Positions 8,604 through 52,746 of a stretch of DNA of 64,000 bases are shown here, one piece after another (positions within the stretch are counted from its first letter, which is position 1; every line of letters begins with the position of its first letter). The stretch comes from Eubacteriales bacterium. Lineage in GTDB: Bacteria > Bacillota > Clostridia > Oscillospirales > CAG-272. Where the stretch lies: contig JAZSBE010000072.1 of the NCBI GenBank assembly GCA_045602215.1, positions 1,390-65,389 on the forward strand, written 5' to 3'. The notes under the pieces were generated by a model that was not told the DNA's origin, searched no databases, and was given only the letters and a program-made list of their open reading frames with translations. A program made the translations under genes and the position numbers.

Positions 8604-9863
8604 TTATTCCACGTCAAACGACAGGCTGGTGGTGGCGTTGCTGTGATTGGTGAGGGTAAAGGCAACCGTCTCCCCTGCTCCTGCAAGCACGACCTCAACG
8701 CTTGTGCCCGAGTAATCCTCGCCGCCGACCGTGAGGGTCACCGACGTGTTGGAGAAGCTCACCGTCTTCCCTGCCTCGGCGGAGAATACGATCGTAGCAC
8801 CTGCCGACAGGGACAGATCAATAGAATCATCAATCACAGGCGCGGGATCTGCCTCGGTGCCTGCATAGCAGTTCACCTCAAATGCAATGACTGCCGCGTT
8901 CTCTCCGTCCGTGGAGGAAACCTCGATCACCACCTCATCTCCCTCGGAAACGAGCATATACGTGCCGGACGCACCGTCGGTAGAGGGGGTCACGGCATAG
9001 GTGTTCAGGTTGGAGAGCGAAATATTGTTTTTCTCGTTTGCAGAAGAAACCACGAGAATGCCGCTCTTTTCGGCTACGTACTTGTAATAAACCGCACCGT
9101 CTGCAGGAACAGACGCCTCGGCGGAATTGCCTTCCATATCATAGGGATTCTCCATAGAGCCCTTGGGGGAAACCATGCAAACGGAGAGCTCCAGTTGGGC
9201 GTCGGTGGTATTCTTGATCGAGAATCTCGTTATCTCGCCCACCTGAGGCGTGATCGGAACCACGACCTTGCCACCCTCTGCGGTGTACTCGGTGTCCTTA
9301 TAGGTGATCACAACGCCCTCGTTCTCGACGGTGAGGTATCTCATAGCCGCGCCGCGGTAGATGTAGTAGACCTCGCCCTTGGCGTCAAGCGTGAGGGCAG
9401 TGACGTCCTCCACGATGATGAAGGGCTTTGCGAGCGTACCGTTCGGGTTGTTGTCAACGACCGTCAGAAGGATGTCCGACGTATCCGCAGTGACATCAAC
9501 CGAAAACGTATCGGGGGCGCAACCCGAAGGCAGCGTCTCATAATCGTAGCTGATCATATACTTGCCCACAACCAGCTTCGCCGAAACCGTGCCGTCCGAG
9601 CCGCTGACAAGCTCATAGGTGTCCGAGCCGCACTTGAGCGTGAATTTCACACCCGAGAGACTGTTGCCGTTGTCAAGTTTGACAGAAAACGCGCACTGCT
9701 TCTCGACCTTGGGGGGCTCCTGAGGAGAGGTGTCCTCGGGGTTGTTGGCTGAATCGCTCGCCTCTGTGTCGGGAGTTTCCTCGTCCTTTTTCTTGTCACA
9801 GGAAACCAGGCTCACCGACAGGACAAGCATGAGCGCCATAAGAACAATCCATATCTTTTTCAT
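8604..9863 (-). CDS. secreted lipoprotein with Cna-B-like and PPC-like beta-sandwich modules
   Basis: Start at ATG 9863 (AAGGAGA RBS); the ORF-track TTG at 9923 was rejected. Signal peptide MKKIWIVLMALMLVLSVSLVSC with lipobox. Modules open with KPF/NPY and contain VYYIYR/VYYKYV. Confidence 0.75.
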   Translation of the reverse strand: MKKIWIVLMALMLVLSVSLVSCDKKKDEETPDTEASDSANNPEDTSPQEPPKVEKQCAFSVKLDNGNSLSGVKFTLKCGSDTYELVSGSDGTVSAKLVVGKYMISYDYETLPSGCAPDTFSVDVTADTSDILLTVVDNNPNGTLAKPFIIVEDVTALTLDAKGEVYYIYRGAAMRYLTVENEGVVITYKDTEYTAEGGKVVVPITPQVGEITRFSIKNTTDAQLELSVCMVSPKGSMENPYDMEGNSAEASVPADGAVYYKYVAEKSGILVVSSANEKNNISLSNLNTYAVTPSTDGASGTYMLVSEGDEVVIEVSSTDGENAAVIAFEVNCYAGTEADPAPVIDDSIDLSLSAGATIVFSAEAGKTVSFSNTSVTLTVGGEDYSGTSVEVVLAGAGETVAFTLTNHSNATTSLSFDVE

Positions 9864-9894
9864 GTGTATTCTCCTTGATGTATAATATATGTTT

Positions 9895-9923
9895 ATTATA
9901 TCACGAAAAGCACTTAATTTCAA
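9895..9923 (-). promoter_or_regulatory. sigma70-type promoter of the 419-aa lipoprotein gene
   Basis: Reverse strand reads TTGAAA-17 nt-TATAAT with a TG extended -10. Confidence 0.55.
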
Positions 9924-9968
9924 GGCATTTGTCTAAATTCGTCACAAGTTTTGCAAGGAAAGAGAAAT

Positions 9969-9993
9969 GGCGCTCCGCAATTTGCGGAGCGCC
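9969..9993 (-). terminator. Rho-independent terminator after the giant lipoprotein gene
   Basis: Perfect 11-bp stem GGCGCTCCGCA / TGCGGAGCGCC with a 3-nt loop, followed on the reverse strand by ATTTCTCTTTCC. Confidence 0.65.
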
Positions 9994-10049
9994 ACAAGTA
10001 TGTCGCGAATCTCAATCAGGATTGCAAGGTGCAACCCGAGGAGTTACGC

Positions 10050-22963: not shown

Positions 22964-24517
22964 TTATTTCTCCTCATCCTTAAATCCGCTGTAAAGCAGC
23001 GCAAAATATTTTTCTATGGCTTTCTTTTGTTCCTCGGTGTATCCGTACTTTTCATCACCGAGCTTTTCGATCATCAAGGTATTGTACCTTGCGTATAGCG
23101 TTCCGTATTCCACGTATTCTCCCGTGAGCGGATCGAGAACCAGATCGTCGCTTCCGTACTGGACGCCCTCGCCGATACCTCCGGAGGTCGGCTTGTTCTT
23201 ATCGTCCTCCTCATCAAGATCCTGATCGCCCTTGTTGATGTCCTCGCCGTTCTTCACGAAATCGGGACGTTCAAATTGGGGGATCGGAACGGAAAACAAC
23301 ATTCCAAGACGCGTCATGGTGTATTCACCCACGTTGGTGTTGATCTTCTGCGTGGAGATGGTGGTGTAAAATTCATCGGTCATTGCCGAAAGCGTGCCGT
23401 CGACCGCCGAGATCAGCGCGTCGCTGTCTGCACTCGCATGGCTCGTGGGGATCGAAGCAAGACCTGCCAGCTCTCCGTCACCGTTGACGAGCTTGTAGAC
23501 CGACGCATAAAGCGGATCGGTCGGCGCGATCTTGGACGCAACCAGCGCGGTATTCGTCTTTCTCGAAAGATTTTCAAGCGTCCAGCGAATGGTGTCGGCG
23601 GGATCGGCCGTCTCGTTCTCCTCATTCTCGGGGGTCGAGCGGGGCTCTTGCTCCTCCTCCGTACCGTCCGAGGCGAGTGATTGACGAAGGGCGTCGTATT
23701 TCTCGGCAAAATCTCCCCAATCGGGATCCTTCCAATGGCTGGTGTTGAGCGCCTTGGCTAGCAGCATGATATTGACGTCGTCGGTATTCCAAAGCTCGTT
23801 GAGGATCTCAGTCATAGAGGAAGAATCGTAAGTATTCCGCGTAATCTCGGTCAACGCCACGGCAAGAGCCGCCTGCATCTCGGGCTCGGTTTTTGCCTCC
23901 TTCAGCGTGGCAAGCAGCTCGGTAAGCGTGCTTGAGATCTTGCTTCTGTACGGCTCCTCCATCTGTGAGGAACCCACGTATCGGATCAGCTCCTCGATTC
24001 CTGCGATCTGCATCTTGGAGATCTCAAATGGGATCACCTCCTCGGGAGGGATGTAGGGCTCTTTTTCGGGGATCAGAATCCCAGCGGTCAGAGTGCCCGC
24101 TCCTATGAGCAGCGCGAGCGCGTAGATCCAAAGTTTCTTTGCCTTCAGCCTGCTTTTTTTGATTTCCGCCAGCGTGCTTTCGGCGTCCGCTCGCTGAAGT
24201 GCCTGCATCTCGCCCTCCTCGTCTCGGAAGGCAACCGCCGTCTGCACCTTTTCGCTGAGCATGAACTTCTCGTCGATCTCACGCGCAAGCCGTTTGTCGG
24301 ATTTCCAAAGCGCAAAAAACACGGTCAGGAAGGCAACGGCTGCAACACCCGCGCCGATGATTATGGACACCGTGGGAGAAAGCGCGACCCACTCGAGCTT
24401 GTCGAGGATCAACGCCCCTCCCGATGCAAGTGCGCCAAACGCCCCTCCTGCAAGGCACGCCTTCAGGCTCCGAAAGCCCCGAAGCCGCTTTTTGAATTTG
24501 TAAAAGTTTTTGTTCAT
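22964..24517 (-). CDS. membrane protein of unknown family, first gene of MoxR operon
   Basis: 517 aa. AAGGAG RBS. Three hydrophobic segments in the first 150 residues, then a long helical/acidic region. 2-nt gap to moxR. Confidence 0.65.
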   Translation of the reverse strand: MNKNFYKFKKRLRGFRSLKACLAGGAFGALASGGALILDKLEWVALSPTVSIIIGAGVAAVAFLTVFFALWKSDKRLAREIDEKFMLSEKVQTAVAFRDEEGEMQALQRADAESTLAEIKKSRLKAKKLWIYALALLIGAGTLTAGILIPEKEPYIPPEEVIPFEISKMQIAGIEELIRYVGSSQMEEPYRSKISSTLTELLATLKEAKTEPEMQAALAVALTEITRNTYDSSSMTEILNELWNTDDVNIMLLAKALNTSHWKDPDWGDFAEKYDALRQSLASDGTEEEQEPRSTPENEENETADPADTIRWTLENLSRKTNTALVASKIAPTDPLYASVYKLVNGDGELAGLASIPTSHASADSDALISAVDGTLSAMTDEFYTTISTQKINTNVGEYTMTRLGMLFSVPIPQFERPDFVKNGEDINKGDQDLDEEDDKNKPTSGGIGEGVQYGSDDLVLDPLTGEYVEYGTLYARYNTLMIEKLGDEKYGYTEEQKKAIEKYFALLYSGFKDEEK

Positions 24518-26020: not shown

Positions 26021-26063
26021 ACAAAAATCAGAGGCGGGAGCCGCGTCTGCGGCTGCCGCCTCT
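26021..26063 (-). terminator. Rho-independent terminator after the Ig-repeat lipoprotein gene
   Basis: Stem AGAGGCGG...CCGCCTCT with a nested GCCGC..GCGGC stem, followed on the reverse strand by GATTTTTG. Confidence 0.7.
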
Positions 26064-26114: not shown

Positions 26115-29100
26115 TTAGTATGCGTGTGCTGCGGTAACCAAGGGCGCTGCGGGAGGCGTGGGCTCGCCGGGAAGTGTTCCCTCGTTGTAGCCAAGCACAA
26201 TACCAAGATTATACCAGTAAAGAGCAAGATAATCACCCTTGTAGATGTTACCGTTACCTAATTGATCGGTAAAGGTTTCAAGATCAGAGTAACCTACGCC
26301 GCCTTCGCTGGAAACAAAGATGGGAGGAGGCACAGGAAGTCCTGCGGTCTGAGCCTTAATAAGATCCACATAGGGATTACCGTAAGTGGTATTCATCGTT
26401 GTGGCTCCAATACCCGGCAGCATGACAGGTACATTCGTGTGGTCGTCCATATCCAACGCGGTCGTTCCGCCAATGACAAGTTTTCCGTCAATGTCGGCAG
26501 GCGTACCCGTGCTAACACCGGGGATGTAGTCTGCATCCATATTGATCATGATCATATTCATGAAGCCATTGGCGTTTTCACCAAGCAGTGTCTTAAAGGA
26601 AGAACCACTCGGGAGACAATCATTCACTCCGGCAATCATTCCCGCCTGACTGTCGATACCGTGAGAGGTGAACCATGCCTCGGTACCTACGACGTAGGAG
26701 AATACCGTCGAGTTCGCATCGATGTTCACAATGTTCTTCGACTGGCTGTTGGCAGGGTCGGAGGTATTAGCATTCATACAGAGGATCGCAGGACCGCCCG
26801 CCTTACCTACGAAGGAATTGTTGATGTTGATCGTAGTGGGCACGTGGTTCGCGTGAAGCTCGGTCGCATTCTCGTCATCAATATCGTTCCTGGTCCAGGT
26901 GTTGATGTGAGACTGCCATGCGTCATAGAATTTGGTGTAGTTGAGGTTCACGGTCTGGCAATCATACTCCGGCATCGCCGTGATGTAGTAACGGGTTGCA
27001 TTGACCGCGTTGAGATTGTAGGTCGCCTTCGCGGTCTTGAACGCATAGACACCGAGCATATGACGCTGCGATTCTATCAGATCCTCAACCGAAACAGACT
27101 CGTCGTTGTCGTTCATGCCGAGTGCATAGAAGTTGTAAACGTAGTCTGTGTGGTTGAAGTTCGGCTCGTACCACAGGTTCTCAGCAACGTTGAATCGGAA
27201 GATCTCGGAAGAGGATAATCCGTTGTCGTCATTCGCCAATTTTCCACCGACAAGCTGTGTTCCCTGGGGTGCAACGATGGGAATGTTGTAGGTGTTGATG
27301 GTGAAGTAGTTGCCGTAGAAATTGAAGGTGCCGGCAGACGTCATTTCGTGGTAATAGATGGACTGATGGTCCCAGATATAGGTATTACCGTTTACACCGG
27401 TGCAGAAGTACTCCGCAGGCAGGTCGGTTTTCTGAATGGTGAAGTTGTTGTGGAGAACCACGCCGTTGAGGGTTGCGGGACGTGTGATGCCATTGTTCTG
27501 AAGGAAGGTGTTTACAACCGTGAGCTGGTTATAGCCCGAGTTACCAAGATCCTTGGACACGTTGGTGATCACGTTGAGCTCCTTGGCGTCGTGGATGTTG
27601 TATGCGTCCACAACGGTAACCTCAAGGGTCTTTGTAAAGGTTTCAATCTTGCTGTCAGGAATGTTATCGGGACGGGTCTTGATCACGAAGGTCTTGCCCT
27701 CGGCAGCCTTGGTGAACTGGAAGGTGTGGTTTTCCTCGTCAATGGTAACGTATTCCGAGCCAACGGGAGTACCGTTCAGAAGCACCTCGGATTTGCTCGT
27801 ATAGCCCACGTACTTTTCAACAGGCAGATAGGTCGTGGGATCAAGCAGTTTCAGGTTGAGCGTGTACTTGAAGGGATTGTTGCTTCCTACAACGTAGCCG
27901 TAGCCACTGTCAAGGAAGTTGTTCTGGTAGGTGTTTTGCTTCCAGTTTGCAAGCTGGTCGGGATCAGAAACACCTCCCACAACGTAGTTGAAGTCCTCGG
28001 CAACGATCGTAACCTTAACGGCTGCAGACGTCACGCCTTGGAAGGTAGCCGTGATTTCGCCCTCATAAACACTGTTTTTATCGAAGTCTGCGCCATTGAC
28101 CACGACGCCGTCCTTCACAGCTCTCTCAATAAACTCGCCGTTGGAGAGGGTGAGGTCAACGCGGAGGTTGCTGACGTCGAACTTGCCAAGGGTGGTGTGC
28201 GCTTCAAAGGAACCGGTGTCGATTGCAACCGATACAACGGTCACGACCTCGATCTCGAAGGTGCTCGAGAACGTACCGTCCGCACAGGTGTAGGTTGCGG
28301 TAACCGTCTTCTTGCCTGCGGTGGTGGTGTCAACCGCGGAAAGAGTCAGACCGGTAACAGTTCTGGGAAGATTGTTGGAGAGGGTCGCGGTAGCCGAAAT
28401 CTCTCCTGCGTTATAGGTCTCACCGAGCAATACCCAAGTCGCATAACCGCTGTTGACCTTGATGGAGGTCACAACAGGGGGAGTGCTGGAAAGGATAACG
28501 GTAGCACTGAACTCACCGTAGGTGATCACCCAGTTGCGGTTGCCTGCAGAGTGAGGCGGGAAGTTGTTCGCAACAAGCTTGGAATCGTTGCTCGCAATGA
28601 GGTGTCTGTCACCGTTATTGTAGCAAAGATAAACCTTGAGACCGGAAATGTCGGGATTGTAACCCTCTGCAACGGTCGTGTCAACCGACTCGGGATCAAC
28701 CTCGATGCCTACGGGCAGGATCTCCATAACGGTCACCGTAAACTCAAGCGTGAGCGACTCGTAAGCAACCTTCAGGGTCTGCTCGCCAACCTTCTTGGGA
28801 TCGATCTCGGTGAGGAACTTCAGATCCTTCGCCTCAACGATCTTGGTCGAATTGTCGGAATAGGTAGCCGTGATGGTAAGCGCGGACGTGTCGTAGACGT
28901 CGTTCTTGTAGATGGAGCTCTTCAGTCCGCTGCGGTAAGCCAGAGACGTCAGAGTGGGTGCGACGGGAGTGGTGTCTCCGGGCTTGGGTGCGCTCGGCAC
29001 CTTGACCTCAAGAGAAGCGGTGATGCTGAGCCCGTCATAGGTAATGGTGTACTCCACCTTTTGGGGCTTGGATGTGTCAACTGCAGAAATCTCAACGTCA

Positions 29101-29315
29101 TCGACGCCAAGCTCTACGGTAGACAGGTCATTGTAGGTTGCAAGAAGCTTGATCTGGGAGAAATCGGGGGTCTCACCAACCAGAACCTCGGTGGGCGCGC
29201 CGCCGGTGATCGCCAGACTCTCAATTTGTTTGCCAAATTGGAAGCCGTCACAAGCCGTCAATGACAAAATAATCGTAAGAAGTAGGACAATTGGAAGTAA
29301 AATTCTTTTTTTCAT
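26115..29315 (-). CDS. 1066-aa lipoprotein with N-terminal Big_3-like Ig repeats and large C-terminal (beta-helix-like?) domain
   Basis: Signal MKKRILLPIVLLLTIILSLTAC (lipobox). Five to six ~80-aa repeats ending in patterns such as GEQTLKVAYESLTLEFTVTV. The C-terminal ~550 aa is N/T/G-rich with no family recognised. Confidence 0.8.
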   Translation of the reverse strand: MKKRILLPIVLLLTIILSLTACDGFQFGKQIESLAITGGAPTEVLVGETPDFSQIKLLATYNDLSTVELGVDDVEISAVDTSKPQKVEYTITYDGLSITASLEVKVPSAPKPGDTTPVAPTLTSLAYRSGLKSSIYKNDVYDTSALTITATYSDNSTKIVEAKDLKFLTEIDPKKVGEQTLKVAYESLTLEFTVTVMEILPVGIEVDPESVDTTVAEGYNPDISGLKVYLCYNNGDRHLIASNDSKLVANNFPPHSAGNRNWVITYGEFSATVILSSTPPVVTSIKVNSGYATWVLLGETYNAGEISATATLSNNLPRTVTGLTLSAVDTTTAGKKTVTATYTCADGTFSSTFEIEVVTVVSVAIDTGSFEAHTTLGKFDVSNLRVDLTLSNGEFIERAVKDGVVVNGADFDKNSVYEGEITATFQGVTSAAVKVTIVAEDFNYVVGGVSDPDQLANWKQNTYQNNFLDSGYGYVVGSNNPFKYTLNLKLLDPTTYLPVEKYVGYTSKSEVLLNGTPVGSEYVTIDEENHTFQFTKAAEGKTFVIKTRPDNIPDSKIETFTKTLEVTVVDAYNIHDAKELNVITNVSKDLGNSGYNQLTVVNTFLQNNGITRPATLNGVVLHNNFTIQKTDLPAEYFCTGVNGNTYIWDHQSIYYHEMTSAGTFNFYGNYFTINTYNIPIVAPQGTQLVGGKLANDDNGLSSSEIFRFNVAENLWYEPNFNHTDYVYNFYALGMNDNDESVSVEDLIESQRHMLGVYAFKTAKATYNLNAVNATRYYITAMPEYDCQTVNLNYTKFYDAWQSHINTWTRNDIDDENATELHANHVPTTININNSFVGKAGGPAILCMNANTSDPANSQSKNIVNIDANSTVFSYVVGTEAWFTSHGIDSQAGMIAGVNDCLPSGSSFKTLLGENANGFMNMIMINMDADYIPGVSTGTPADIDGKLVIGGTTALDMDDHTNVPVMLPGIGATTMNTTYGNPYVDLIKAQTAGLPVPPPIFVSSEGGVGYSDLETFTDQLGNGNIYKGDYLALYWYNLGIVLGYNEGTLPGEPTPPAAPLVTAAHAY

Positions 29316-29390
29316 TTTTTTGGCCTCTTTTCTTTATTTATTGCATAATTGCAAACAATGTTGTTGGGGAGTCATTTTGCGTATGCAAAA

Positions 29391-29819
29391 TCACTCGTAC
29401 TCTGACGTATCGATCGCCCAGATCATAATCTTTTGGGAAATCGTGGGGTTTTCAGCCGAAACGATGTACACGGGGAAAACGCGCGTTCCCTCGCCCGTGA
29501 TGGTGATGAGACCATTCTCATCGACCGTTGCAAAGGTGTTATCCTTTTCAAGGACGTAGTTGATCTTTGCATTGGTGGCATTCGCGGGCTTCACCTCACA
29601 GTAGAGCTGAACCGTTCTCGTGCCGTCCTCCTTGAACTCGTTGAGAAAGTGGATCGAATCCTCTCCCTGGATCAGCTTGATCTCGTGATCGGCGGTGACC
29701 GTGATGCTCTCTACGTATACGTTGTCGATGTACGTCTTGGGATTCAGACCTAAGAAGGACACCAGAGCGATCGCCGCTACGTATATCAGAGCAATCACAA
29801 TGACGACTGCTTTTTTCAT
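29391..29819 (-). CDS. membrane-anchored Big_2-like Ig-domain protein
   Basis: 142 aa. N-terminal TM helix. VKPANATNAKINYVLEKDNTFATVDENGLITITGEG matches the Big_2 pattern. Confidence 0.65.
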   Translation of the reverse strand: MKKAVVIVIALIYVAAIALVSFLGLNPKTYIDNVYVESITVTADHEIKLIQGEDSIHFLNEFKEDGTRTVQLYCEVKPANATNAKINYVLEKDNTFATVDENGLITITGEGTRVFPVYIVSAENPTISQKIMIWAIDTSEYE

Positions 29820-29822
29820 CTT

Positions 29823-31493
29823 TTATTTCTCCTTATAGTAGAGCTTTACGTTCTGGTAGAACGTAAAGAACTTGATTGCAAAAGCGGCGATTCCCACCAG
29901 CATGAGCTTGAGATACAGATTGTAGGGCTCGTGCATCTGCAGGATCAGGAATACCATAAATGCCGTTGCGAACGAGAGGATAAACGCCAGAGCGGTCGCC
30001 TTTGCCTCGTTGGGGTTGGACTCGGTCGATCCCATCGTCGCGTAAACCTCGTTCTGCGGGTTCATGATGTCAAACTCGGCACACAAAAGATGATGCGCGA
30101 GGTAGATGAACCAGATGCCGCCCAGGAGATAGAAGAGATCCACCCCGGTAAGGCCGCAGGTGTCCTTCATCACAACGCAGGTCAGAACCAGGGACAGGGT
30201 CACGAAGAGGGTGTTGGGCACGAGCTTGGCGAGGAGCAGTCCAAAGGGATTGGTAGGCTGCGTCTTGATCAGGTAGCTGGAGCGACCTTCCTTTGAGAAG
30301 ATGCTGGCAGCGTAGGTATTGGAGTTGAGCGCAATCAGCATGATAATCAGCACGTTTGCGGTGGATACCATGATTTTACCGATCGCCCGAAGACTCATTG
30401 CCGCGAAAATCCTATTCAGAAGGAATATGAGAATCGGGATGGCAAACAGCATCGCCACGTTGGAATACAGTCTGTCAGAGGACTTGATCGCCACGAGCAT
30501 TTCGTTGGCGAATGCTGCAGTCCTTTTGTTGTGTACTCTGTTCTTTCTGGGCTTCACGTTCTTTTTGAGGAACTCAAAGGGCTTGGACGCCATGGAGTAG
30601 AAGAGCGGACGCGCGATCAGAGCTGCCAGTCCTGCAAACACTGCGACAAAACCGAGAAGAACCAGCAAGCGCAGCAGGTTTGCTCCAAGCGAGAAGGATA
30701 TGAAGTCCGCGCTTCCCAGAAGCACGAGCGTCATATTGAACACGGGGTTCAACGTCTGCGCCTTTACGTCCGAATAAGCATAACTGTCAACGAATCGTCT
30801 GATTTGCCTTCTGATGAACGTCGCCTGATCTCTGAGGTCGATGTTTGTGGGGATAAGGTTGATCGCGTAGAACACGCCCATGATTGCCGCGACGACCAGG
30901 ATGACGAGCACGATCTTCTGCAGAAGTGCGCGCTGGTTGAAGAGGTTGGCGAGCCACATGCCGGGGATGGAAAGCAGAGCTGCCACCGCAACCGTAAGCA
31001 TGGAAACGAAAATGATACAGAATACCATCCAAATGTAGTAATGAACCGCGAAGCCGTGCGTAAAGAAGTAGGCTACGAACACCGGAACGATGAAGGAAAA
31101 GTTACGGATCAGTTCAAATACGTAGAAAATGATGATCTTAGATAAGAAGATCTGGTTTGGTGTACAAGGGAGGGTCAAAAGGACCGCGTTGTCTCTTGAA
31201 TAATAGAGAGATTTGGTAAGACCGATAGTGCAGGACAGAAGCGAAAAGCCGGTCATCACCAAGAATGCAATTGAGATTGCCGACGGAGGCACGTATCCGG
31301 CGTATCCGAACAGACTGAACATCTTCGCCACCGTGATAAACGCACCGCAAAGCAGGGTAACCATTGCAAACTTGAGAATCGCAACGAACACGGACAACAG
31401 AAGGTTAAAGGACTTGCTGCCGTGTTTTTCCGTACGCTTGGAGGCGAGCTTTTCTTTCAGCTGCATCTTGACAAGTGTAATCAGATTATCCAT
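29823..31493 (-). CDS. polytopic membrane protein, putative ABC exporter permease partner
   Basis: 556 aa with 12 or more hydrophobic segments. GAGGTGGAG RBS. Lies 22 nt after the ABC ATPase fusion gene. Layout resembles the 'putative ABC exporter' family (from memory, not verified). Confidence 0.6.
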   Translation of the reverse strand: MDNLITLVKMQLKEKLASKRTEKHGSKSFNLLLSVFVAILKFAMVTLLCGAFITVAKMFSLFGYAGYVPPSAISIAFLVMTGFSLLSCTIGLTKSLYYSRDNAVLLTLPCTPNQIFLSKIIIFYVFELIRNFSFIVPVFVAYFFTHGFAVHYYIWMVFCIIFVSMLTVAVAALLSIPGMWLANLFNQRALLQKIVLVILVVAAIMGVFYAINLIPTNIDLRDQATFIRRQIRRFVDSYAYSDVKAQTLNPVFNMTLVLLGSADFISFSLGANLLRLLVLLGFVAVFAGLAALIARPLFYSMASKPFEFLKKNVKPRKNRVHNKRTAAFANEMLVAIKSSDRLYSNVAMLFAIPILIFLLNRIFAAMSLRAIGKIMVSTANVLIIMLIALNSNTYAASIFSKEGRSSYLIKTQPTNPFGLLLAKLVPNTLFVTLSLVLTCVVMKDTCGLTGVDLFYLLGGIWFIYLAHHLLCAEFDIMNPQNEVYATMGSTESNPNEAKATALAFILSFATAFMVFLILQMHEPYNLYLKLMLVGIAAFAIKFFTFYQNVKLYYKEK

Positions 31494-31514
31494 TTGCTAA
31501 CTCCACCTCACGCA

Positions 31515-33809
31515 TCAGACTGTCGTCTCCGCAGCGGAGATCGGCGTTTTCGATTCCTCCTCGCGTCGGAGGCTGATGTCCACGTAGTCGGGGTCCTCGT
31601 TTTCGATAATGCTGAGATAGAAGTGCTCGAGGTCGATGCCTCTTTCCTCAAGCTCCTTGAGGGTGATGCAAGCGCGGAGCTTACCCTTCTTGATAATCGC
31701 GATCTTATCGCAGATCTTTTCCACGACGTCGATGATGTGCGAGGAGAAGAACACGATGTTGCCCTTGGCAGCGTGCGCCTTCATGCACTCCTTCACCTCG
31801 TGAATGGAGTTGGGGTCAAGACCTGTCAGCGGCTCGTCAAGGATCCAGACCTTGGGATTGTGCACGAGTGCCGCCATGATCGCGATCTTCTGCTTCATAC
31901 CGTGAGAGTAGGTCTTCATCTGGTTGTCAAAGGAGCCTGTGAGCTGGAAGGACTCCACGTAGCCCTCAATGCGCTCGTCGCGGTCCTTTTGACTGACCGA
32001 GTAAAGGTCTGCAATATAGTTGATGTATTCTCTTCCCGTGAGGTTTTCGTAAAGCGCGTAGTGGTCGGGAACGAATCCGAGATTGTGCTTTGCCTGAATA
32101 GACTGTCTGTCGACGTCATAGCCGCAAACCTCGATATTACCCTCGGTGATCGTCTGGATTCCAACGACACTCTTGATGATCGTGGATTTACCCGCACCGT
32201 TGGGACCGAGGAAGCCGAACACCTCGCCGCCCTTGACCTCAAAGGAGACGTCGTTTACAGAGTAATGCTGGTTTCTTCCGTACTTTTTCTTGAAGTGCTT
32301 CAGCACGAGGCTGGGAGAATTGTCTCCCGTGATGGGCTCGTTGATATTTCTTCCGCCGAGGAATTCCGTAAGCTCTTTTTTCATTCTCTTATAATCCCTT
32401 TCTTTTAATCTTCTGTCTTCCGCGCTATCCCAGGACTTGAACAGTATCGCGTACAGGAACCACATTCCCACGGATGCGACTACGTATACGAGGAAGAACA
32501 GGGACTGATAGATCGGATAAAATTCCATCGTGACTTCACCGATGGTAACGGGCCAAATGAAATCACGCGTTCTCTCTGCCCATTTACCAAGCTTATCAAC
32601 GATAAAATCACTGTTGAGGAAGAAGAAGTCCGTTTCATGACCGATACCCGTGAAATAACCGTTGGCGAAGATCATCGCGAAGAAGTAGCCGCAGAAGGCG
32701 ATCTGTGAGTACACCCACTGCTTGAACTTCGGTCTTTCAAAGATCTTCAGCGCCACCAGAAGAAGGGGCATAAAGAATGCGGGATAGTGATTGATCCAGA
32801 AATGCACCGACTCGTTGGACAGTGGCGAGTTGGAGAAGTTCGGCATGATCATTGCCAGGAAGGCACCCAGCACGTTGATGAACAGCGTGAAGTTGAAGAG
32901 CTTTTTCATTCCGAAGATCAAACAGATGGGAATGATAAACTGCGCCGTATTGCAAAGGTGAAGCGGCCAGGACCAAGGCGTCGTTGCATCCGCCAAGGTA
33001 TATTGTCTCATGTACGTCCACATCAGACCCAGCGACATGAAGATCATAACGAAGCGCTTGACGTCCTGAGGCTTATTCTTGATCGCCTGGAAGATCAGGA
33101 AAGGAACGAGGATCGCAAAATAAAGAACGATTCTGTGCAGATAGTTGAAATCGTCGATCGTCGTAACGCCCGGGATCTCACCAAAGATCGCATAGGGGAT
33201 GTAGGTGGGGATGATGGTCAGGAGCGCAAAGGGGAGCGCCAGGAGCAGGCTTCCCGCTTCCTTCCACGTGGGAAAGGGGAATTTCCCTTCCTCTATAAAT
33301 CTTGCCATCACAAGTCCGAGACCGAGACCGATCTCCACGCAAAGGAGCGGAAGTCTGAGGTCAAAGCTCGTAAACACGTCCGTACCGATGATACCTGCCG
33401 CATACGTGTCGAAGAAAACGATATCCAGAATCAGCACGGGAAGTGCGAAGAAGTTGGTCAGATGTCTTAGGGTCTTATACTCGAAGAACTGGTCGAGCAC
33501 GATCGCGAGCAGAGCCGTAAAGGTAAACCAAGTTAAAAACAAGGAAATGATCGTGCTTACGACGTCAGCCCCAAAAGGCGAAAACATATTGATACCCTGA
33601 AGGAAATGGTAGTTTCCATCACTGGCAATCATTCCTCGGTTCGCCTCGGTTTCGTACATATATCTGACGAACGCAGCCGTCGCCAGAACAAGCGCGAAAA
33701 ATTTCCTTGAAAGAGAAGAACTGTATTTTTTTAACCTAACGAAAATGGCAAGGCCGATAAAGACTGTTATCAGGCCAAAAATTAGCAAAAGACTGGTGGA
33801 TTGATTCAT
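31515..33809 (-). CDS. fusion protein: polytopic YwaF/TMEM164-like membrane domain + ABC transporter ATP-binding domain
   Basis: Start at ATG 33809 (AAAGAGG RBS); the TTG at 33848 was rejected. N-terminal ~480 aa is multi-TM with WSWPLHLC and HFWINH motifs. The C-terminus has Walker A GPNGAGKST, signature YSHGMKQK and Walker B ILDEPLTGLD. Confidence 0.8.
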   Translation of the reverse strand: MNQSTSLLLIFGLITVFIGLAIFVRLKKYSSSLSRKFFALVLATAAFVRYMYETEANRGMIASDGNYHFLQGINMFSPFGADVVSTIISLFLTWFTFTALLAIVLDQFFEYKTLRHLTNFFALPVLILDIVFFDTYAAGIIGTDVFTSFDLRLPLLCVEIGLGLGLVMARFIEEGKFPFPTWKEAGSLLLALPFALLTIIPTYIPYAIFGEIPGVTTIDDFNYLHRIVLYFAILVPFLIFQAIKNKPQDVKRFVMIFMSLGLMWTYMRQYTLADATTPWSWPLHLCNTAQFIIPICLIFGMKKLFNFTLFINVLGAFLAMIMPNFSNSPLSNESVHFWINHYPAFFMPLLLVALKIFERPKFKQWVYSQIAFCGYFFAMIFANGYFTGIGHETDFFFLNSDFIVDKLGKWAERTRDFIWPVTIGEVTMEFYPIYQSLFFLVYVVASVGMWFLYAILFKSWDSAEDRRLKERDYKRMKKELTEFLGGRNINEPITGDNSPSLVLKHFKKKYGRNQHYSVNDVSFEVKGGEVFGFLGPNGAGKSTIIKSVVGIQTITEGNIEVCGYDVDRQSIQAKHNLGFVPDHYALYENLTGREYINYIADLYSVSQKDRDERIEGYVESFQLTGSFDNQMKTYSHGMKQKIAIMAALVHNPKVWILDEPLTGLDPNSIHEVKECMKAHAAKGNIVFFSSHIIDVVEKICDKIAIIKKGKLRACITLKELEERGIDLEHFYLSIIENEDPDYVDISLRREEESKTPISAAETTV

Positions 33810-33897
33810 AAAATAAAACCTCTTTATCCATTCTAATATGCCGGACAAACAAGAACTGTGAAAGTGAGCTTTTCAAGGCTCACTTGCATCCTCGATT

Positions 33898-33925
33898 ATT
33901 ATACTACAAAATTACGAAAAGTCAA
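33898..33925 (-). promoter_or_regulatory. sigma70-type promoter of the ABC-fusion operon
   Basis: Reverse strand reads TTGACT-16 nt-TATAAT. The leader contains hairpin AAGTGAGC..GCTCACTT. Confidence 0.5.
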
Positions 33926-34115
33926 TATTTTTCGACAACCTTTGCCCTAATCGCCAAAAAGCGTTTGGGGATCCCATTTGTTTTTTGGTTGTTTTGACCA
34001 CGATTTTTCCAATATATGGATTGCGCCTTGCCAAGTTTTACATATATTCTCATTGACTGAAACAACAACCTATTTATTATATAAATCACGGTTTTCACCG
34101 TCCGGTGAAAAAGGC

Positions 34116-34145
34116 GAAGAAGAAGAAGAAGAAGAAGAAGAAGAA
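34116..34145. repeat. (GAA)10 trinucleotide microsatellite, intergenic
   Basis: Ten perfect GAA units counted directly. Flanked by inverted repeat TTTTCACCG/CGGTGAAAA (34092-34111) and a terminator hairpin (34157-34192). Confidence 0.95.
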
Positions 34146-34156
34146 AACGCATCAAA

Positions 34157-34206: not shown

Positions 34207-34947
34207 TTACTTTAGTTTTTTGGGAAAGCATAGCCGAAGCAGCTTGCTCACAACCGTGTAAAGCGCGATGTACACGAAGGCGGAAAACGTTCCTCCGACG
34301 GTAACGGTCAGAACCGTAAAAACGGTGTAGTTCAGCTGTCCCCACTCGAGACGGAGCGCCTCCAGAGCAGGGATCACGCTTTGGAGAAAATTACAGTAAT
34401 TCACATCCCATTTATAGGCAAGAGGAAGTGCCACGGCGATATACACCACACCGATCCCACCCATCAGGAAGGCGTCGCGCGGCCGAGGACGGCACAGGCG
34501 CATCGCCACAGCGAGCAGAAAATAGAGTAATATTAAATGATGGAAAAGAAATCCGTGCGTTTCCCTGAAATTCTGACCGACAAGCCCGATATCCCCCATG
34601 ATCCCACAGGGATAGACGTACGTTGCCACCGAGACCATAAAGGACATACACACCGCAACGGGACGGAAGACCCGCGACATACGCGTCCCAAAAAGCTCGG
34701 CCAAGGGAATCACCACATAAAACAGACTGCAGTAATGAAAAGGCAGCAGGTAATAATCAAACTCTCCGAGCAAATTCCATTTCTGCTTGACAACCTCGAT
34801 AGAAAGCAACGTCAAAGCAACAACCGCGCAGGGAATGGCGCGCACCCGTTCGGAGTTTTTGCGAAACAGAAGCGCAAGAATCGCCACAAAAACGATCATT
34901 GCCAAAAGCACTCGAGGCAACACTTGTTTATCAATTTCAGAATACAC
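34207..34947 (-). CDS. YwaF/TIGR02206-like (TMEM164 family) integral membrane protein
   Basis: LPFHYCSL and FHHLILL motifs parallel WPLHLC/HFWINH in the fusion gene. Start placed at GTG 34947 (GAAAGGAG 5 nt upstream). The ORF-track ATG at 34986 lacks an RBS and sits ~20 nt from the predicted +1. Confidence 0.65.
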   Translation of the reverse strand: MYSEIDKQVLPRVLLAMIVFVAILALLFRKNSERVRAIPCAVVALTLLSIEVVKQKWNLLGEFDYYLLPFHYCSLFYVVIPLAELFGTRMSRVFRPVAVCMSFMVSVATYVYPCGIMGDIGLVGQNFRETHGFLFHHLILLYFLLAVAMRLCRPRPRDAFLMGGIGVVYIAVALPLAYKWDVNYCNFLQSVIPALEALRLEWGQLNYTVFTVLTVTVGGTFSAFVYIALYTVVSKLLRLCFPKKLK

Positions 34948-35004
34948 GGCGACTCCTTTCTCCCCTTCGCGGGCGGTTCTCATCAAGGCAAAAGCAATAC
35001 GACT

Positions 35005-35033
35005 ATTATACCACTCCTCTTCCCTTTTGTCAA
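35005..35033 (-). promoter_or_regulatory. sigma70-type promoter of the ywaF-like gene
   Basis: Reverse strand reads TTGACA-17 nt-TATAAT (perfect consensus). Confidence 0.6.
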
Positions 35034-35121: not shown

Positions 35122-35685
35122 TCAGGGAAGGGGTTCCCCTTCGGCGTCAAACAGCGGCAGAGGCTCCAGATACAGAATGTCCTCGCGGCCGCGGGCGTCT
35201 CCCTCGGCAAGGATCGCCATCTTTCCAACGATGTTTCCCCCCGCGTGCAGGACGAGCTCCTCGATCGCGCGCAGAGAATCTCCCGTGCTGATGACGTCGT
35301 CCACGATCAGAACGCGCTTTCCTCTCATCCATTCGGCATCCGCACCGTCAAGATAGAGCGTCTGCTTTTTGGCGGTCGTGATCGAATTGACGTCGCAGGA
35401 AAAGACGTCACTCATATAGAGCTTTTGCATCTTTCTTGCAACCACGTACTTGTTTTTCCCCTCCTGACGCGCCATCTCGTAGACCAGAGGAATCCCCTTG
35501 CTCTCGGACGTGATAATGACGTCGTGATCGGGCGCAATCTTGAGAAGCTCCCGCGCGCAGGCGCAGGTAAGCTCCACGTCTCCGAAAATGACGAACGCGC
35601 CAATGTAAAGAGTTTCGTTCAACGGGCAAAGGGGCAATTCCCTCTCAAGTCCCGCCAGCTTCATAGTATAGGATGTTTTTTTCAT
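35122..35685 (-). CDS. purine-type phosphoribosyltransferase (Apt/Xpt-like)
   Basis: PRPP-binding motif VLIVDDVISTGDS. Start moved to the ATG at 35685 (GGAGGAAAACGA-ATG). Divergent from a purine permease gene. Confidence 0.8.
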   Translation of the reverse strand: MKKTSYTMKLAGLERELPLCPLNETLYIGAFVIFGDVELTCACARELLKIAPDHDVIITSESKGIPLVYEMARQEGKNKYVVARKMQKLYMSDVFSCDVNSITTAKKQTLYLDGADAEWMRGKRVLIVDDVISTGDSLRAIEELVLHAGGNIVGKMAILAEGDARGREDILYLEPLPLFDAEGEPLP

Positions 35686-35781
35686 TCGTTTTCCTCCGTA
35701 TCGTGATGAGGTACTTCCACGTCTATTATACGCCAAAGAGGTCGATCTGTCAAGGATTATGAAAAAACAGAGCGGAATCTG

Positions 35782-35810
35782 TTGACTTTTGCAAAAAATT
35801 CATGTATAAT
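35782..35810 (+). promoter_or_regulatory. sigma70-type promoter of the NCS2 permease gene
   Basis: TTGACT (35782-35787), 17 nt, TATAAT (35805-35810). The 5' UTR is short, so there is no room for a riboswitch. Confidence 0.6.
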
Positions 35811-35846
35811 CAATTTGTCCCTAAAAAAACAATGGAGGAAAAATTG

Positions 35847-37304
35847 ATGGACAAGTTTTTCAAAATTACCGAGCGAGGCTCGAACTACCGCAAGGAAATC
35901 GTGGGCGGTCTGACCACCTTCTTTGCAATGGCGTACATCATCTTTGTAAACCCCGCGCAGGTTGCGGCTGAGGGCGCAAACGGCTGGCTGGCAGCACTTG
36001 GCGCAGATTCCGCAGCACTCGGCATGATCTGGAACTCGGTTTTCGTGGCGTCGGTTCTCGTCGCCTTCCTGGGAACCTTCCTGTATGCCGTCTACGCAAA
36101 GCTTCCCTACGCACAGGCGTGCGGCATGGGTCTGAACTCCTTCTTCTGCACGTGCTTCATTTCGGGCGCGTACTTTGCAGGCGTTGACCTCATCGGCGGC
36201 TACCACTCGGGTATGATCCTCGTCTTCATCTCGGGTATCGTATTTCTGCTCCTTTCGGTTACGGGCGCAAGACAGTACATTGCAAAGGCAATGCCCGACT
36301 GCCTGAAGAAGTCCATTCCCGCGGGAATCGGTCTGTTCATCGCCTTCATCGGCTTTAAGAACGCAGGCATCATTACCGCAAACCAGTACACCTTCGTTCA
36401 GTTCGTGGACATCAACGGCGCGTTTGGCGTTGAGGGCGTTTCCACGCTCGACGCATGGCGCACCATCGCTCCCGCGATCGTTGCATTCCTCGGATTCATC
36501 ATCATTTCGGTTCTCACCAAGAAGAATGTCAAGGGCGCAGTCCTGATCGGTATTTTCAGCTCTGCCGTTCTCTACTACCTCGCCACCTGGCAGGTTCCCC
36601 AGCTCGACTTCTCCTCGATCGGTCAGTCCTTCAAGGATTTCGGCGAGATCGGCATCACGGGTCTGTTCGATGCAGAGGCTTGGAAGCTTGCATTCAACGG
36701 CGCGCACATCGGCGGTGTCTTCTCCGCGATCGTTCTGATCATCTCCTTCTGCATCGTGGATATGTTTGACACGGTGGGCACGCTTTACGGAACGGCTACC
36801 GAGGCAGGTATGCTGGACGAAAACGGCGACCCCATTGATATGGACAAGGCAATGGCGTGTGACTCGGTCGGCACCGTTGCAGGTTCCGTTCTCGGAACCT
36901 CCACCTGCACCACCTTCGTGGAGAGCGCATCGGGCGTTGCAGCGGGCGCAAGAACGGGTCTTGCAAGCCTCGTAACCTCCCTCTGCTTCCTCGCGTGCCT
37001 CTTCCTCACTCCCCTTGCAAGCATCGTTCCCTCCTGCGCAACCGCACCCGCGCTGATCTTCGTGGGCGTATTGATGCTCAAGAACTTTGCAAACGTGGAT
37101 ATGACCGATATGAGAAGCTCCGTACCCGCGTTCCTGACGCTGATCATGATGCCCCTGACCTACTCCATCTCCAACGGAATCGGTATCGGATGCATCGCGT
37201 ACGTGCTCATCACCCTTCTCACCGGTAAGTACACCAAGAAGGATATCGTTGCAACCGTGATCGCGCTCTTGTTCGTAGCAAAGTTCGCGTTCATCACCAT
37301 GTAA
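35847..37304 (+). CDS. NCS2-family purine (adenine/guanine/hypoxanthine) permease, AzgA/PbuG-like
   Basis: MDKFFKITERGSNYRKEIVGGLTTFFAMAYIIFVNP is the characteristic N-terminus. GGAGGAAAAATTG-ATG start at 35847. Confidence 0.85.
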   Translation: MDKFFKITERGSNYRKEIVGGLTTFFAMAYIIFVNPAQVAAEGANGWLAALGADSAALGMIWNSVFVASVLVAFLGTFLYAVYAKLPYAQACGMGLNSFFCTCFISGAYFAGVDLIGGYHSGMILVFISGIVFLLLSVTGARQYIAKAMPDCLKKSIPAGIGLFIAFIGFKNAGIITANQYTFVQFVDINGAFGVEGVSTLDAWRTIAPAIVAFLGFIIISVLTKKNVKGAVLIGIFSSAVLYYLATWQVPQLDFSSIGQSFKDFGEIGITGLFDAEAWKLAFNGAHIGGVFSAIVLIISFCIVDMFDTVGTLYGTATEAGMLDENGDPIDMDKAMACDSVGTVAGSVLGTSTCTTFVESASGVAAGARTGLASLVTSLCFLACLFLTPLASIVPSCATAPALIFVGVLMLKNFANVDMTDMRSSVPAFLTLIMMPLTYSISNGIGIGCIAYVLITLLTGKYTKKDIVATVIALLFVAKFAFITM

Positions 37305-44003: not shown

Positions 44004-44029
44004 GTGTGTAACATTTGAATATCACAAAA

Positions 44030-44292
44030 AACGACGTTGACGAAGACGGTCGGAATGTGGAGTCTGCAGAGAGTTGGCGGTTGCTGCGAGCCAATGACGA
44101 AACGTTTCAATGACCTATCACTTCTGAGTCGAAGGACCGAACGCTTTTTTTTGCAAGTAGACTCCTTCCGTAATGCTGCGTAAAGGCAAAGGGCTTGTCA
44201 GAGTCCGGAAAGTGGCGAAACGACCGTTTCGCAATTTGAGTGGTACCGCGGGTGTAATGCTCGTCTCAAGTTTTTGAGACGGGTTTTTTGTT
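44030..44292 (+). promoter_or_regulatory. T-box riboswitch leader (specifier most consistent with AUC, Ile)
   Basis: K-turn CGAC-GUU-GA-CGAAG (44032-44045) pairs with CUUCU-GA-GUCG (44121-44131). AG bulge AGAGAG (44068-44073), distal loop GGTTGCTGCGA, AAGTAG Stem II start. T-box AATTTGAGTGGTACCGCGG (44233-44251). Terminator CGTCTC/GAGACG followed by T-run (44262-44290). Confidence 0.85.
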
Positions 44293-48280: not shown

Positions 48281-48570
48281 CAGAGAGGAAAAAAACACGC
48301 CCTCTGCATTCCGTTCAGAATACAGAGGACGAGAAATTCCCGCGGTACCACCTCAATTTACCGACGTCTCGCGACTTCGGCCTTTCAGAGTGTCTATCAA
48401 CACCCCCGTTCTGTAACGGGAACACCCGTTGCGGCCTACTGAAAAAAGCTTCGTTCGGCGCACTGCTCGCAGGATGTATTCCGCTCGGGCTCTCCGTTGT
48501 CTTGCACCAACCGACAACTCTCTGTAGGAAAATTCCAAGCCTACTCTTTCCTGCTCAAACGCATTTGATA
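48281..48570 (-). promoter_or_regulatory. T-box riboswitch leader, specifier UAC (Tyr)
   Basis: Reverse strand shows K-turn TGC-GUUU-GA-GCAGGA / UCCUGC-GA-GCA, AAGAGUAG, AG bulge AGAGAG, distal loop GGUUGGUGCAA, and specifier loop GGAA-UAC-A (UAC = forward 48476-48478). Also F-box-like CCGUUA, T-box AAUUGAGGUGGUACCGCGGG, and terminator CGTCCTCTG/CAGAGGGCG followed by a U-run. Confidence 0.85.
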
Positions 48571-52447: not shown

Positions 52448-52521
<74 letters not shown>

Positions 52522-52579
52522 TAACATTGTTGCTTCCCGTCTTGAAAGACGGGAAGCAAACTAATGTTTCATCTCTGAT

Positions 52580-52656
<77 letters not shown>

Positions 52657-52668
52657 GAAATTGAATAT

Positions 52669-52746
52669 GGTGGGATTGGCGCAGTTGGTTAGCGCGTCAG
52701 GTTGTGGCCCTGAAGGCCGTGGGTTCGAATCCCATATCTCACCCCA
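52669..52746 (+). tRNA. tRNA-His (anticodon GUG) with extra 5' G(-1), CCA encoded
   Basis: G-1 followed by acceptor GTGGGAT/ATCTCAC, anticodon stem TCAGG/CCTGA with loop TTGTGGC (GTG at 52704-52706), T-loop GGTTCGAATCC. Confidence 0.9.

Follow-up and report, generated by a model that had tools for sequence, protein, structure and literature searches.

We analysed a four-gene locus in a 64,000-nucleotide (nt) stretch of DNA from a Eubacteriales bacterium of the Oscillospirales (GenBank assembly GCA_045602215.1, contig JAZSBE010000072.1, positions 1,390 to 65,389 of the forward strand), which we refer to as the window. The genes, called g1 to g4, code for a polytopic membrane protein fused to the ATPase of an ATP-binding cassette (ABC) system, a permease, a small membrane-anchored protein and a large predicted lipoprotein, respectively. 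Their features are listed below in window positions. Residues of g1 are numbered throughout in the 777-amino-acid (aa) frame that opens at an upstream TTG codon (position 33848).

33898-33925, minus strand: operon promoter of the sigma-70 type, TTGACT-16-TATAAT (11 of 12 consensus matches, and read in the sequence)
31515-33809, minus strand: g1 fusion gene, 764 aa from an ATG (31515-33848, 777 aa, if a TTG start is used)
33144-33809, minus strand: g1 N-terminal module of six transmembrane (TM) segments, aa 14-235, with a conserved external SPFG loop; mean pairwise identity 40%
32439-33143, minus strand: g1 TMEM164/YwaF-type 7-TM domain, aa 236-470, with the codons of Cys299 (32952-32954) and His354 (32787-32789)
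32313-32438, minus strand: g1 cytoplasmic helical linker, aa 471-512, rich in Lys, Arg and Glu; pairwise identity 65%
31518-32312, minus strand: g1 ABC ATPase, or nucleotide-binding domain (NBD), aa 513-777, of the ABC-2/DrrA/ABCA class; pairwise identity 83%
29823-31493, minus strand: g2, permease of 556 aa with about 12 TM segments, PF16949
29391-29819, minus strand: g3, bitopic protein of 142 aa, with an N-terminal TM helix (aa 1-26) and an external immunoglobulin (Ig)-like Big_2 domain
26115-29315, minus strand: g4, lipoprotein of 1066 aa
29250-29315, minus strand: g4 lipoprotein signal peptide, with the lipobox L-T-A-C and Cys22, as read in the sequence
28002-29228, minus strand: g4 stalk of five Big_3-like Ig repeats, aa 30-438
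26118-27965, minus strand: g4 head, an Ig/cadherin-like domain and a probable right-handed beta-helix, aa 451-1066
26021-26063 (approximately), minus strand: intrinsic terminator, a G+C-rich hairpin AGAGGCGGCAGCCGC...GCGGCTCCCGCCTCT followed by a T-run

A preliminary description of this DNA, made from the sequence only, had reported one promoter, four closely spaced genes and a strong terminator. All were found at their reported positions on the minus strand, with intergenic gaps of 21, 3 and 75 nt between g1 and g2, g2 and g3, and g3 and g4, and a z value of -4.95 for the fold surrounding the terminator. The four open reading frames are real, and the length first given for g1, 765 aa, was off by one. 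Its likeliest start is the ATG at 33809, which is preceded by an AAAGAGG ribosome-binding site; a database protein 98% identical to g1 (P0001) has the same length of 764 aa. In the 5' leader of g1, between the promoter and the ribosome-binding site, lies a perfect 8-base-pair hairpin, AAGTGAGC ... GCTCACTT, at 33862-33885 on the minus strand. A scan of the operon region including this hairpin yielded no riboswitch or leader RNA match in Rfam. Matching of the cassette to plasmids and phages gave no hits, and thus no sign of mobility.

Pfam assigns residues 240-423 of g1 to PF14808, the TMEM164 family (E=1.7e-22, 80.4 bits with a cut-off of 25). The isolated membrane domain also matches this profile (E=2.8e-23, 83 bits), and residues 531-674 match PF00005, ABC_tran (E=6.6e-28). 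With the retention of the catalytic Cys and His residues and of the ATPase motifs described below, these matches bear out the proposal that a YwaF/TMEM164-type domain is joined in frame to a complete ABC domain. An AlphaFold2 model of the g1 monomer, built on 80 homologues, has a mean predicted local distance difference test (pLDDT) score of 82.8, with values of about 90 or more in the membrane part. The model contains 13 TM helices instead of the roughly 14 hydrophobic segments counted at first. Seven of them cover residues 236-470 (pLDDT about 90), and a long helix (aa 445-497) exits the membrane as the charged linker that leads to the NBD. The N-terminal 6-TM module has no Pfam match; the idea that it is a degenerate duplicate of the YwaF domain was rejected (hhalign probability 0.3%). 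When the full g1 model was compared with the PDB using Foldseek, the listing was filled by NBD matches. Single-sequence and profile searches of the PDB with the g1 membrane domain, a stand-alone YwaF paralogue encoded upstream of the operon, g2 and the g4 head gave nothing useful, and only the NBD matched solved structures.

The NBD falls in the ABC-2/DrrA/GldA class according to NCBIfam, the best scores (GldA and DrrA, about 208 bits) being below the equivalog cut-offs. By sequence profile, the closest solved NBDs are those of ABCA3, ABCA4 and ABCA1, followed by those of bacterial ABC-2 ATPases, NosF and LptB; ABCA7 and TagH are also listed. In the 80 homologues, the motifs GPNGAGKS, WILDEP with the catalytic Glu672, TGLD and SSH are intact and invariant. 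All these proteins have YSHG in place of the LSGG signature, and the Gln of the Q-loop is absent, the corresponding segment reading GFVPD-H with an invariant Asp595. An acidic residue at this position is known in some BcrA/DrrA-type ATPases.

Human TMEM164 is a coenzyme A (CoA)-independent transacylase that forms an acyl-thioester intermediate on Cys123 and uses His181 as a base (PMC12830759; bioRxiv 10.1101/2022.07.06.498872). Its Gly155 is required for substrate access, and Glu106 and His124 help to hold a metal ion (PMC12830759). Two residues define the superfamily, a nucleophile on core TM2 that may be Cys, Ser or Thr and a His on core TM4 that does not vary; YwaF/TIGR02206 proteins occur in bacteria and archaea, and the bacterial ones are uncharacterised (bioRxiv 10.1101/2022.07.06.498872). 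The g1 motifs quoted in the preliminary description are all present, and no variation occurs among the homologues in PLHLC (aa 295-299), in NH (aa 353-354) or at Gly328 and Trp351. The invariant residues thus include P295, H297, C299, G328, W351, N353 and H354.

For the comparison with the human enzyme, we used a TMEM164 sequence validated by 18 of 18 published residue identities, which matched with a one-residue offset. Scans of fragments beginning at the motif placed human C123, g1 C299 and C86 of the paralogue at position 76 of the PF14808 hidden Markov model (HMM). These coordinates supersede a MAFFT register in which the Cys residues were shifted by three positions. Both hhalign and MAFFT pair G328, F350 and H354 of g1 with human G155, Y177 and H181, respectively. 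A different invariant His, H297, lies two residues before C299. Sequence profile searches from the g1 membrane domain did not reach human TMEM164. The invariance of Cys299, His354 and Gly328 across the homologues argues for retained enzyme activity. The domain keeps the nucleophile and the base, and its chemistry is probably related, not identical, to that of TMEM164.

The loops of g1 contain about 0.29 Lys and Arg per residue on the predicted inner side and about 0.05 on the outer side, where they are net acidic. As the NBD is necessarily cytoplasmic, this charge distribution and the 13 TM helices place C299 at the extracytoplasmic end of its helix. H354 would sit in the outer-leaflet half of its own helix, and the active site is thus predicted to face outward. 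The paper that describes the TMEM164 structure is silent on the side of the membrane that its active site faces (PMC12830759).

As first described, g2 is a protein of 556 aa with about 12 hydrophobic segments. It matches PF16949 (ABC_tran_2; 35.9 bits, cut-off 25.7), and its orthologues also match PF09847 (12TM_1); a search of the PDB revealed no solved relative. Its gene is always found directly 3' of g1, or of the NBD gene where the two parts of g1 are encoded separately. Two conserved amphipathic stretches, at residues 1-20 and approximately 296-312, could represent two NBD-docking elements, and if so, two copies of g1 would be expected per g2. An internal duplication of g2 was considered and set aside as not significant, only a suggestive motif pair having been seen.

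The description of g3 as a TM-anchored Big_2 protein stands. The Big_2 domain of this copy scores just under threshold (21.7 bits, cut-off 22.8), and 17 of the 30 orthologues match the family (best E=1.7e-8). The TM helix of g3 is 72% identical across orthologues, as opposed to 36% for the ectodomain. Such conservation is unusual for a plain anchor and suggests specific contacts within the membrane.

The predicted lipoprotein g4 was correctly recognized as such, with its Big_3-like repeats, although there are exactly five of them instead of five or six (aa 30-105, 120-200, 203-273, 280-360 and 359-438). The lipobox Cys is visible in its orthologues and in all six distant homologues examined. 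No database record was retrieved for the exact g4 protein. The number of Ig repeats ranges from 1 to 19 among complete orthologues; thus, the stalk varies in length and the head is constant. The head (the C-terminal 616 aa), previously left unassigned, has no match in Pfam and none by sequence in the PDB, and a word-based search retrieved only 37 homologues, all of one protein type. Its AlphaFold2 model is mostly beta (pLDDT 88.8, predicted template modelling score 0.90). Foldseek comparisons with the PDB gave weak matches, to Ig/cadherin domains for the first 120 or so residues and to polygalacturonases of glycoside hydrolase family GH28, GH49 enzymes and the adenovirus LH3 protein (best E=6.5e-3, low TM-scores). 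Weak matches to pectin-lyase-fold, tailspike and depolymerase proteins were found among viral models (best E=2.7e-4, low TM-scores). With moderate confidence, we model the head as an Ig-like domain followed by a divergent right-handed beta-helix. Six polar residues of the head are invariant (H172, D181, D199, H353, K388 and E429), which would fit a putative catalytic or specific binding site.

The PF14808-PF00005 architecture, at about 750 aa, is present in more than 120 clusters (90% identity clustering) of at least 57% identity to g1. Full-length copies were found in 35 GTDB species-level genomes, all metagenome-assembled genomes of Oscillospiraceae, Eubacteriales or Clostridia. The carriers are thus uncultured Clostridia of the gut or rumen, and wherever a record name states the source, it is an animal gut or a faecal sample. 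In public databases the family bears the generic label 'ABC-2 type transport system ATP-binding protein'. In every GTDB locus with enough DNA (approximately 35 loci), g1 is directly followed by g2, g3 and a g4-type gene. Stop/start overlaps of 4 nt are frequent between g1 and g2 and between g2 and g3, which suggests translational coupling. No other flanking genes, including those for regulators, Lgt/Lsp or glycosyltransferases, were found in more than three of these loci.

We explored the wider family with phmmer, searching 1.84 billion representatives exhaustively for relatives of the g1 membrane domain; the family proved small, with 225 representatives at E<=1e-3. Roughly half of the 150 listed are fused proteins of about 720-1060 aa, and the other half are unfused proteins of about 440-530 aa. 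Among the matches listed, the alignments span both membrane modules, and plain 250-aa YwaF proteins were essentially not reached. As nearly all matches are thus about 480 or 750 aa long, g1 represents a subfamily separate from plain YwaF. The distant loci, with gene products given in their order, are as follows.

L049, fused, 27% identity: fusion, PF16949/12TM_1 permease, 153 aa, large protein cut by the contig end
L050, fused, 1062 aa: fusion, 557 aa, 204 aa, 689 aa
L053, fused, 26% identity: fusion, 574 aa, 145 aa, 858 aa, plus a second large protein of 722 aa
L051 (6534-13696), fused, 820 aa: 819-aa lipoprotein upstream, then fusion, 576 aa, 168 aa
L043 (4301-7261) and L044 (1275-4235), unfused, 476 aa: membrane gene, 295-aa NBD gene (78% identical to the g1 NBD, 8-nt overlap), g2
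L052 (9001-15485), unfused, 478 aa: membrane gene, 255-aa NBD, 554-aa permease, 135 aa, 664 aa
L048 (1013-2692), unfused, 26% identity: membrane gene directly followed by an NBD gene (cut)
L045, L046 and L047, unfused: no adjacent ATPase gene

With an HMM built on the g4 head, a large partner is found in every complete distant locus, namely the 689-aa protein of L050 (E=8e-63), the 858- and 722-aa proteins of L053 (E=2.5e-42 and 8e-41), the 664-aa protein of L052 (E=6e-39) and the 819-aa protein of L051 (E=4e-30), each of them with a lipobox. Similarly, the g3 HMM recovers the small genes of L051 to L053 (E=2e-11 to 3e-31). The large protein of L049, which is cut before the head, is likewise a lipoprotein; its stalk differs and consists of Flg_new, MBG and PKD repeats.

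Several of these loci show features of their own. In L051 the order is permuted, the gene of the head-domain lipoprotein being upstream rather than downstream of the fusion gene. In L053 (12638-17712), two head-domain lipoproteins are encoded in tandem behind a single ABC/YwaF set, and one machine may thus serve more than one lipoprotein. The fused homologue of L050 carries an additional N-terminal extension of about 340 aa (9001-10020), of low complexity and rich in Gly, Ser, Thr and Glu, in which SQTVGCEASGYIKEDTE occurs twice. In L045 (3288-5905), the 480-aa unfused member is followed by transposase fragments (rve), a helix-turn-helix gene and a gene for a protein resembling extracytoplasmic function sigma factors; this may be a disrupted locus or an independent use of the membrane protein.

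The occurrence of the fusion in so many clusters and in 35 genomes, together with natural versions split into adjacent genes, rules out an assembly or frameshift artefact. In all loci of sufficient length the genes g1 to g4 are linked, even where g1 identity falls to about 26%, and the divergent systems in which this was seen have identities of 26-37%. Fusion, fission, one permuted order and strict co-inheritance provide strong genomic evidence for one functional system.

The upstream paralogue (34207-34986, minus strand) is a 259-aa protein that matches PF14808 (E=4e-12, 46.5 bits) and has the P-x-H-x-C and His motifs. It had been pointed out as a neighbour of the operon, but the two are adjacent in only one of the approximately 35 loci (L031, 66% identity). 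The paralogue also has its own promoter (35005-35033), a perfect TTGACA-17-TATAAT with a TG extension, and we excluded it from the system. About ten CTT/TTC triplets in the spacer between paralogue and operon (approximately 34115-34146), which read as poly-Glu in a spurious open reading frame on the plus strand, could be prone to slippage.

Further upstream, back-to-back near-perfect promoters (35725-35810; 12 of 12 and 11 of 12 matches) serve a phosphoribosyltransferase-like gene (35122-35736, minus strand) and the gene of a 500-aa polytopic membrane protein (35802-37304, plus strand). From their translations, the latter resembling nucleobase permeases, these two genes probably serve purine salvage as a pair and have no relation to the operon. 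On the downstream side, near the neighbours of the operon, a gene on the minus strand (22964-24517) codes for a protein of 517 aa that has hydrophobic segments at its N-terminus and a long acidic stretch; relatives do not keep this gene near the cassette. The window also contains two T-box leaders and three clustered tRNA genes, at 44028-44271 (plus strand), 48322-48568 (minus strand) and 52448-52743 (plus strand), which fit a Firmicutes chromosome.

We tentatively favour a model in which the products of the four genes form one ATP-coupled membrane machine for editing the acyl chains of a lipid in the outer leaflet, this lipid most likely being the anchor of the cassette's lipoprotein. Two copies of g1 would provide an ATPase dimer that docks on one g2 permease, each copy bringing along one YwaF/TMEM164-type domain. 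Protein g3 would dock through its constrained TM helix and display its Ig domain near the membrane surface, possibly as an adaptor that recognizes the membrane-proximal Ig domain of g4. The diacylglyceryl-Cys anchor of g4 would lie in the outer leaflet, and the variable Ig stalk would hold the beta-helix head off the cell. An ester lipid would donate its acyl chain to Cys299 to form a thioester, from which the chain would be passed to an acceptor or to water. As this chemistry requires neither CoA nor ATP, it is feasible outside the cell. The ABC-2-type module would hydrolyse ATP to extract, flip or position the lipid for the YwaF site. The substrate could be the lipid anchor of g4, which would be N- or O-acylated, transacylated, or deacylated so that the protein is released, or else it could be a phospholipid serving as acyl donor. 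The g4 anchor is the likeliest candidate, since the lipoprotein is the only specific partner encoded and its anchor lies in the leaflet of the predicted active site. The remodelling function proposed in the preliminary description is strengthened by the obligate lipoprotein partner, the predicted outward-facing active site and the lack of any other conserved neighbour, whereas the export function that it proposed for the ABC part is not established.

A number of observations weigh against this model. The metal ligands Glu106 and His124 of the human enzyme are not conserved in g1, where T278 and N300 align with them, and the chemistry may therefore differ from that of TMEM164; the metal site is a feature of the human enzyme that is not stated to be family-defining (bioRxiv 10.1101/2022.07.06.498872). 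The predicted topology of g1 rests on a monomer AlphaFold2 model and the positive-inside rule. The residues that immediately follow the lipobox Cys are not conserved among g4 orthologues, and thus there is no sign of a recognition tag. The role of g4 as a substrate is purely inferred, and g4 may simply be co-expressed. The unfused relatives of L045, L046 and L047 have no adjacent ATPase gene. Monoderm bacteria export lipoproteins without an ABC transporter, so that the motor has no evident role if no lipid has to be extracted or positioned. Finally, our literature search found no experiment on any bacterial YwaF protein.

In another scenario, which we regard as somewhat unlikely, the ABC-2 module would export or flip a phospholipid, a glycolipid of the lipoteichoic acid type or a wall polymer, which the YwaF domain would acylate or deacylate outside and the g4 head would bind or trim, as in exopolysaccharide systems with a dedicated beta-helix lyase or epimerase. 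The ABC-2/type V relatives do move lipids and lipid-linked polymers, and the solved NBDs closest to that of g1 by profile are those of the phospholipid transporters ABCA1, ABCA3, ABCA4 and ABCA7, with TagH and LptB also listed, but ABC-2 NBDs in general share this likeness to ABCA proteins. Ester lipids are the substrates of relatives of the YwaF domain, whose active site is predicted to face outward. Many polysaccharide-active proteins typically have the beta-helix fold, although its assignment to the head is weak (6.5e-3 in the PDB and 2.7e-4 in the viral library, low TM-scores). Unlike known polymer exporters, the approximately 35 loci have no conserved adjoining gene for a glycosyltransferase, a polymerase or lipid synthesis.

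Alternatively, the ABC module might not transport anything. As in FtsEX with PcsB, CwlO or EnvC, or as in NosDFY-NosL, it would pass ATP-driven conformational changes through g2 and g3 to switch or load the g4 head, in this case an enzyme with a polymer of the cell wall or of the diet as its target. A lipoprotein with a probable beta-helix head as obligate partner, and a bitopic g3 whose constrained TM helix suits a transmission element, are in line with such a mechanism. So are the absence of linked substrate-synthesis genes, an NBD of the same class as NosF, which is among its PDB matches, and invariant polar residues in the head that are compatible with an active site. Nevertheless, the presence throughout the family of a catalytically intact YwaF domain fused or adjacent to the ATPase is left unexplained. 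With 1 to 19 Ig domains between the head and the membrane, direct mechanical coupling is improbable in the long forms. Moreover, g2 is not of the FtsX/MacB type and the NBD is not of the FtsE/MacB class. We consider mechanotransmission unlikely.

The generic annotation of the family as an ABC-2 transport ATPase and the uncharacterised status of PF16949 permeases would leave room for a common efflux or resistance pump of the ABC-2 type, with a YwaF-like structural appendage and with g3 and g4 as unrelated passengers of the operon, but this is highly improbable given the invariant catalytic Cys and His residues and Gly328 in the homologues and the presence of g3 and the g4 head in every complete locus despite reordering, fission of g1 and identities down to about 26%, for which chance co-location is insufficient.

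The acyl-editing model can be taken further, to an ATP-powered editor dedicated to one cognate giant surface lipoprotein, to which it would add, or on which it would move or remove, an acyl chain that sets retention or release. In this specific form the proposal is doubtful. If true, it would provide a fourth, non-homologous route of bacterial lipoprotein acyl modification beside Lnt, Lit and LnsAB, and the first function assigned to bacterial YwaF proteins. More generally, fusion, fission and co-inheritance tie one YwaF subfamily to an ABC motor and a single lipoprotein, which leads to a functional hypothesis with defined residues, C299, H354 and E672. If confirmed, it would mean that acyl-enzyme lipid chemistry outside the cell is coupled to cytoplasmic ATP hydrolysis, and it could reveal a new way in which monoderm bacteria of the gut modify or release their large surface proteins. 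Recognition by the host TLR2 receptor is governed by the acylation state of lipoproteins, and the system could matter in this way for the host interactions of abundant, uncultured gut Oscillospirales. The PF16949 permease family and the head domain of about 600 aa are now placed in a defined system context.

Comparisons with known systems delineate what is particular to this cassette. Based on its sequence, g1 is a predicted member of the AIG1/TMEM164/GPC1/YwaF/YpjA (ATGY) superfamily to which TMEM164 belongs. With human TMEM164 it shares PF14808, the 7-TM domain, the Cys at one profile position, the His base and the pocket Gly. Human TMEM164 forms dimers, and an ATPase dimer with two copies of g1 would agree with this. 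Unlike TMEM164, g1 has the additional 6-TM module and the ABC ATPase, T278 and N300 in place of the metal ligands, the extra invariant H297 and an active site predicted at the bacterial outer leaflet. Stand-alone YwaF proteins of the TIGR02206 type have the same Pfam family and the P-x-H-x-C and His motifs, but they are about 250 aa long and lack both the N-terminal module and the ATPase.

The ABC-2/type V systems, such as DrrAB, the ABCA proteins, TagGH and Wzm/Wzt, resemble the cassette by the NBD class, a separate polytopic permease and intact ATPase motifs. The cassette differs from them by its single PF16949/PF09847 permease of about 12 TM segments, by an NBD tethered to an enzyme-type membrane domain, by the Asp of the Q-loop and the YSHG signature, and by its obligate bitopic and lipoprotein partners. 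The cassette does not belong to the type VII group (FtsEX, MacB, LolCDE), whose permeases have four TM segments and a large external domain: g2 has no FtsX match, and the top NBD matches are of the ABC-2 class, FtsE appearing far down the list.

The NosDFY-NosL system of copper delivery, reportedly described by Mueller et al. in Nature in 2022, is said to combine an ABC-2-class ATPase and permease with a beta-helix protein and a lipoprotein, and to use ATP for conformational work. The likeness thus lies in an ABC-2-class ATPase and permease acting with an extracytoplasmic right-handed beta-helix protein and a lipoprotein. In our cassette, however, the beta-helix and the lipoprotein are one polypeptide with a long Ig stalk, and there is no copper context; NosDFY-NosL in turn has no YwaF enzyme domain. 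Searches of Pfam and NCBIfam gave no matches to the NosD, NosY or NosL families, and only the NBD class is shared.

Bacteriocin exporters of the peptidase-containing ABC transporter (PCAT) group are type IV systems in which a soluble, cytoplasmic, N-terminal C39 peptidase is fused to the ABC protein, with the cognate substrate encoded in the operon. Like them, the cassette would have a catalytic domain on the ABC protein, processing coupled to the ATP cycle and a co-encoded substrate. It differs from PCATs by an acyl-enzyme domain that is integral to the membrane, by the predicted external position of its active site and by its transporter class.

The job proposed for the cassette is analogous in its chemistry to that of Lnt, which forms an acyl-thioester on a Cys residue at the outer face of the membrane, with a phospholipid as donor, and N-acylates lipoproteins. 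Among the Pfam and NCBIfam matches of the four proteins there is no homology to CN_hydrolase/Lnt, Lit or LnsAB. To our knowledge, none of these three systems is coupled to ATP or dedicated to a single co-encoded lipoprotein. The preliminary description had not recognized the architecture as a described system, and we likewise found no paper in the searchable literature that describes a YwaF-ABC fusion, the PF16949 family or the g4 head domain. Compared with the systems above, what is new here is the fusion of a predicted acyl-enzyme domain to an ABC-2 system, which has no precedent, and the lipoprotein partner dedicated to that system.

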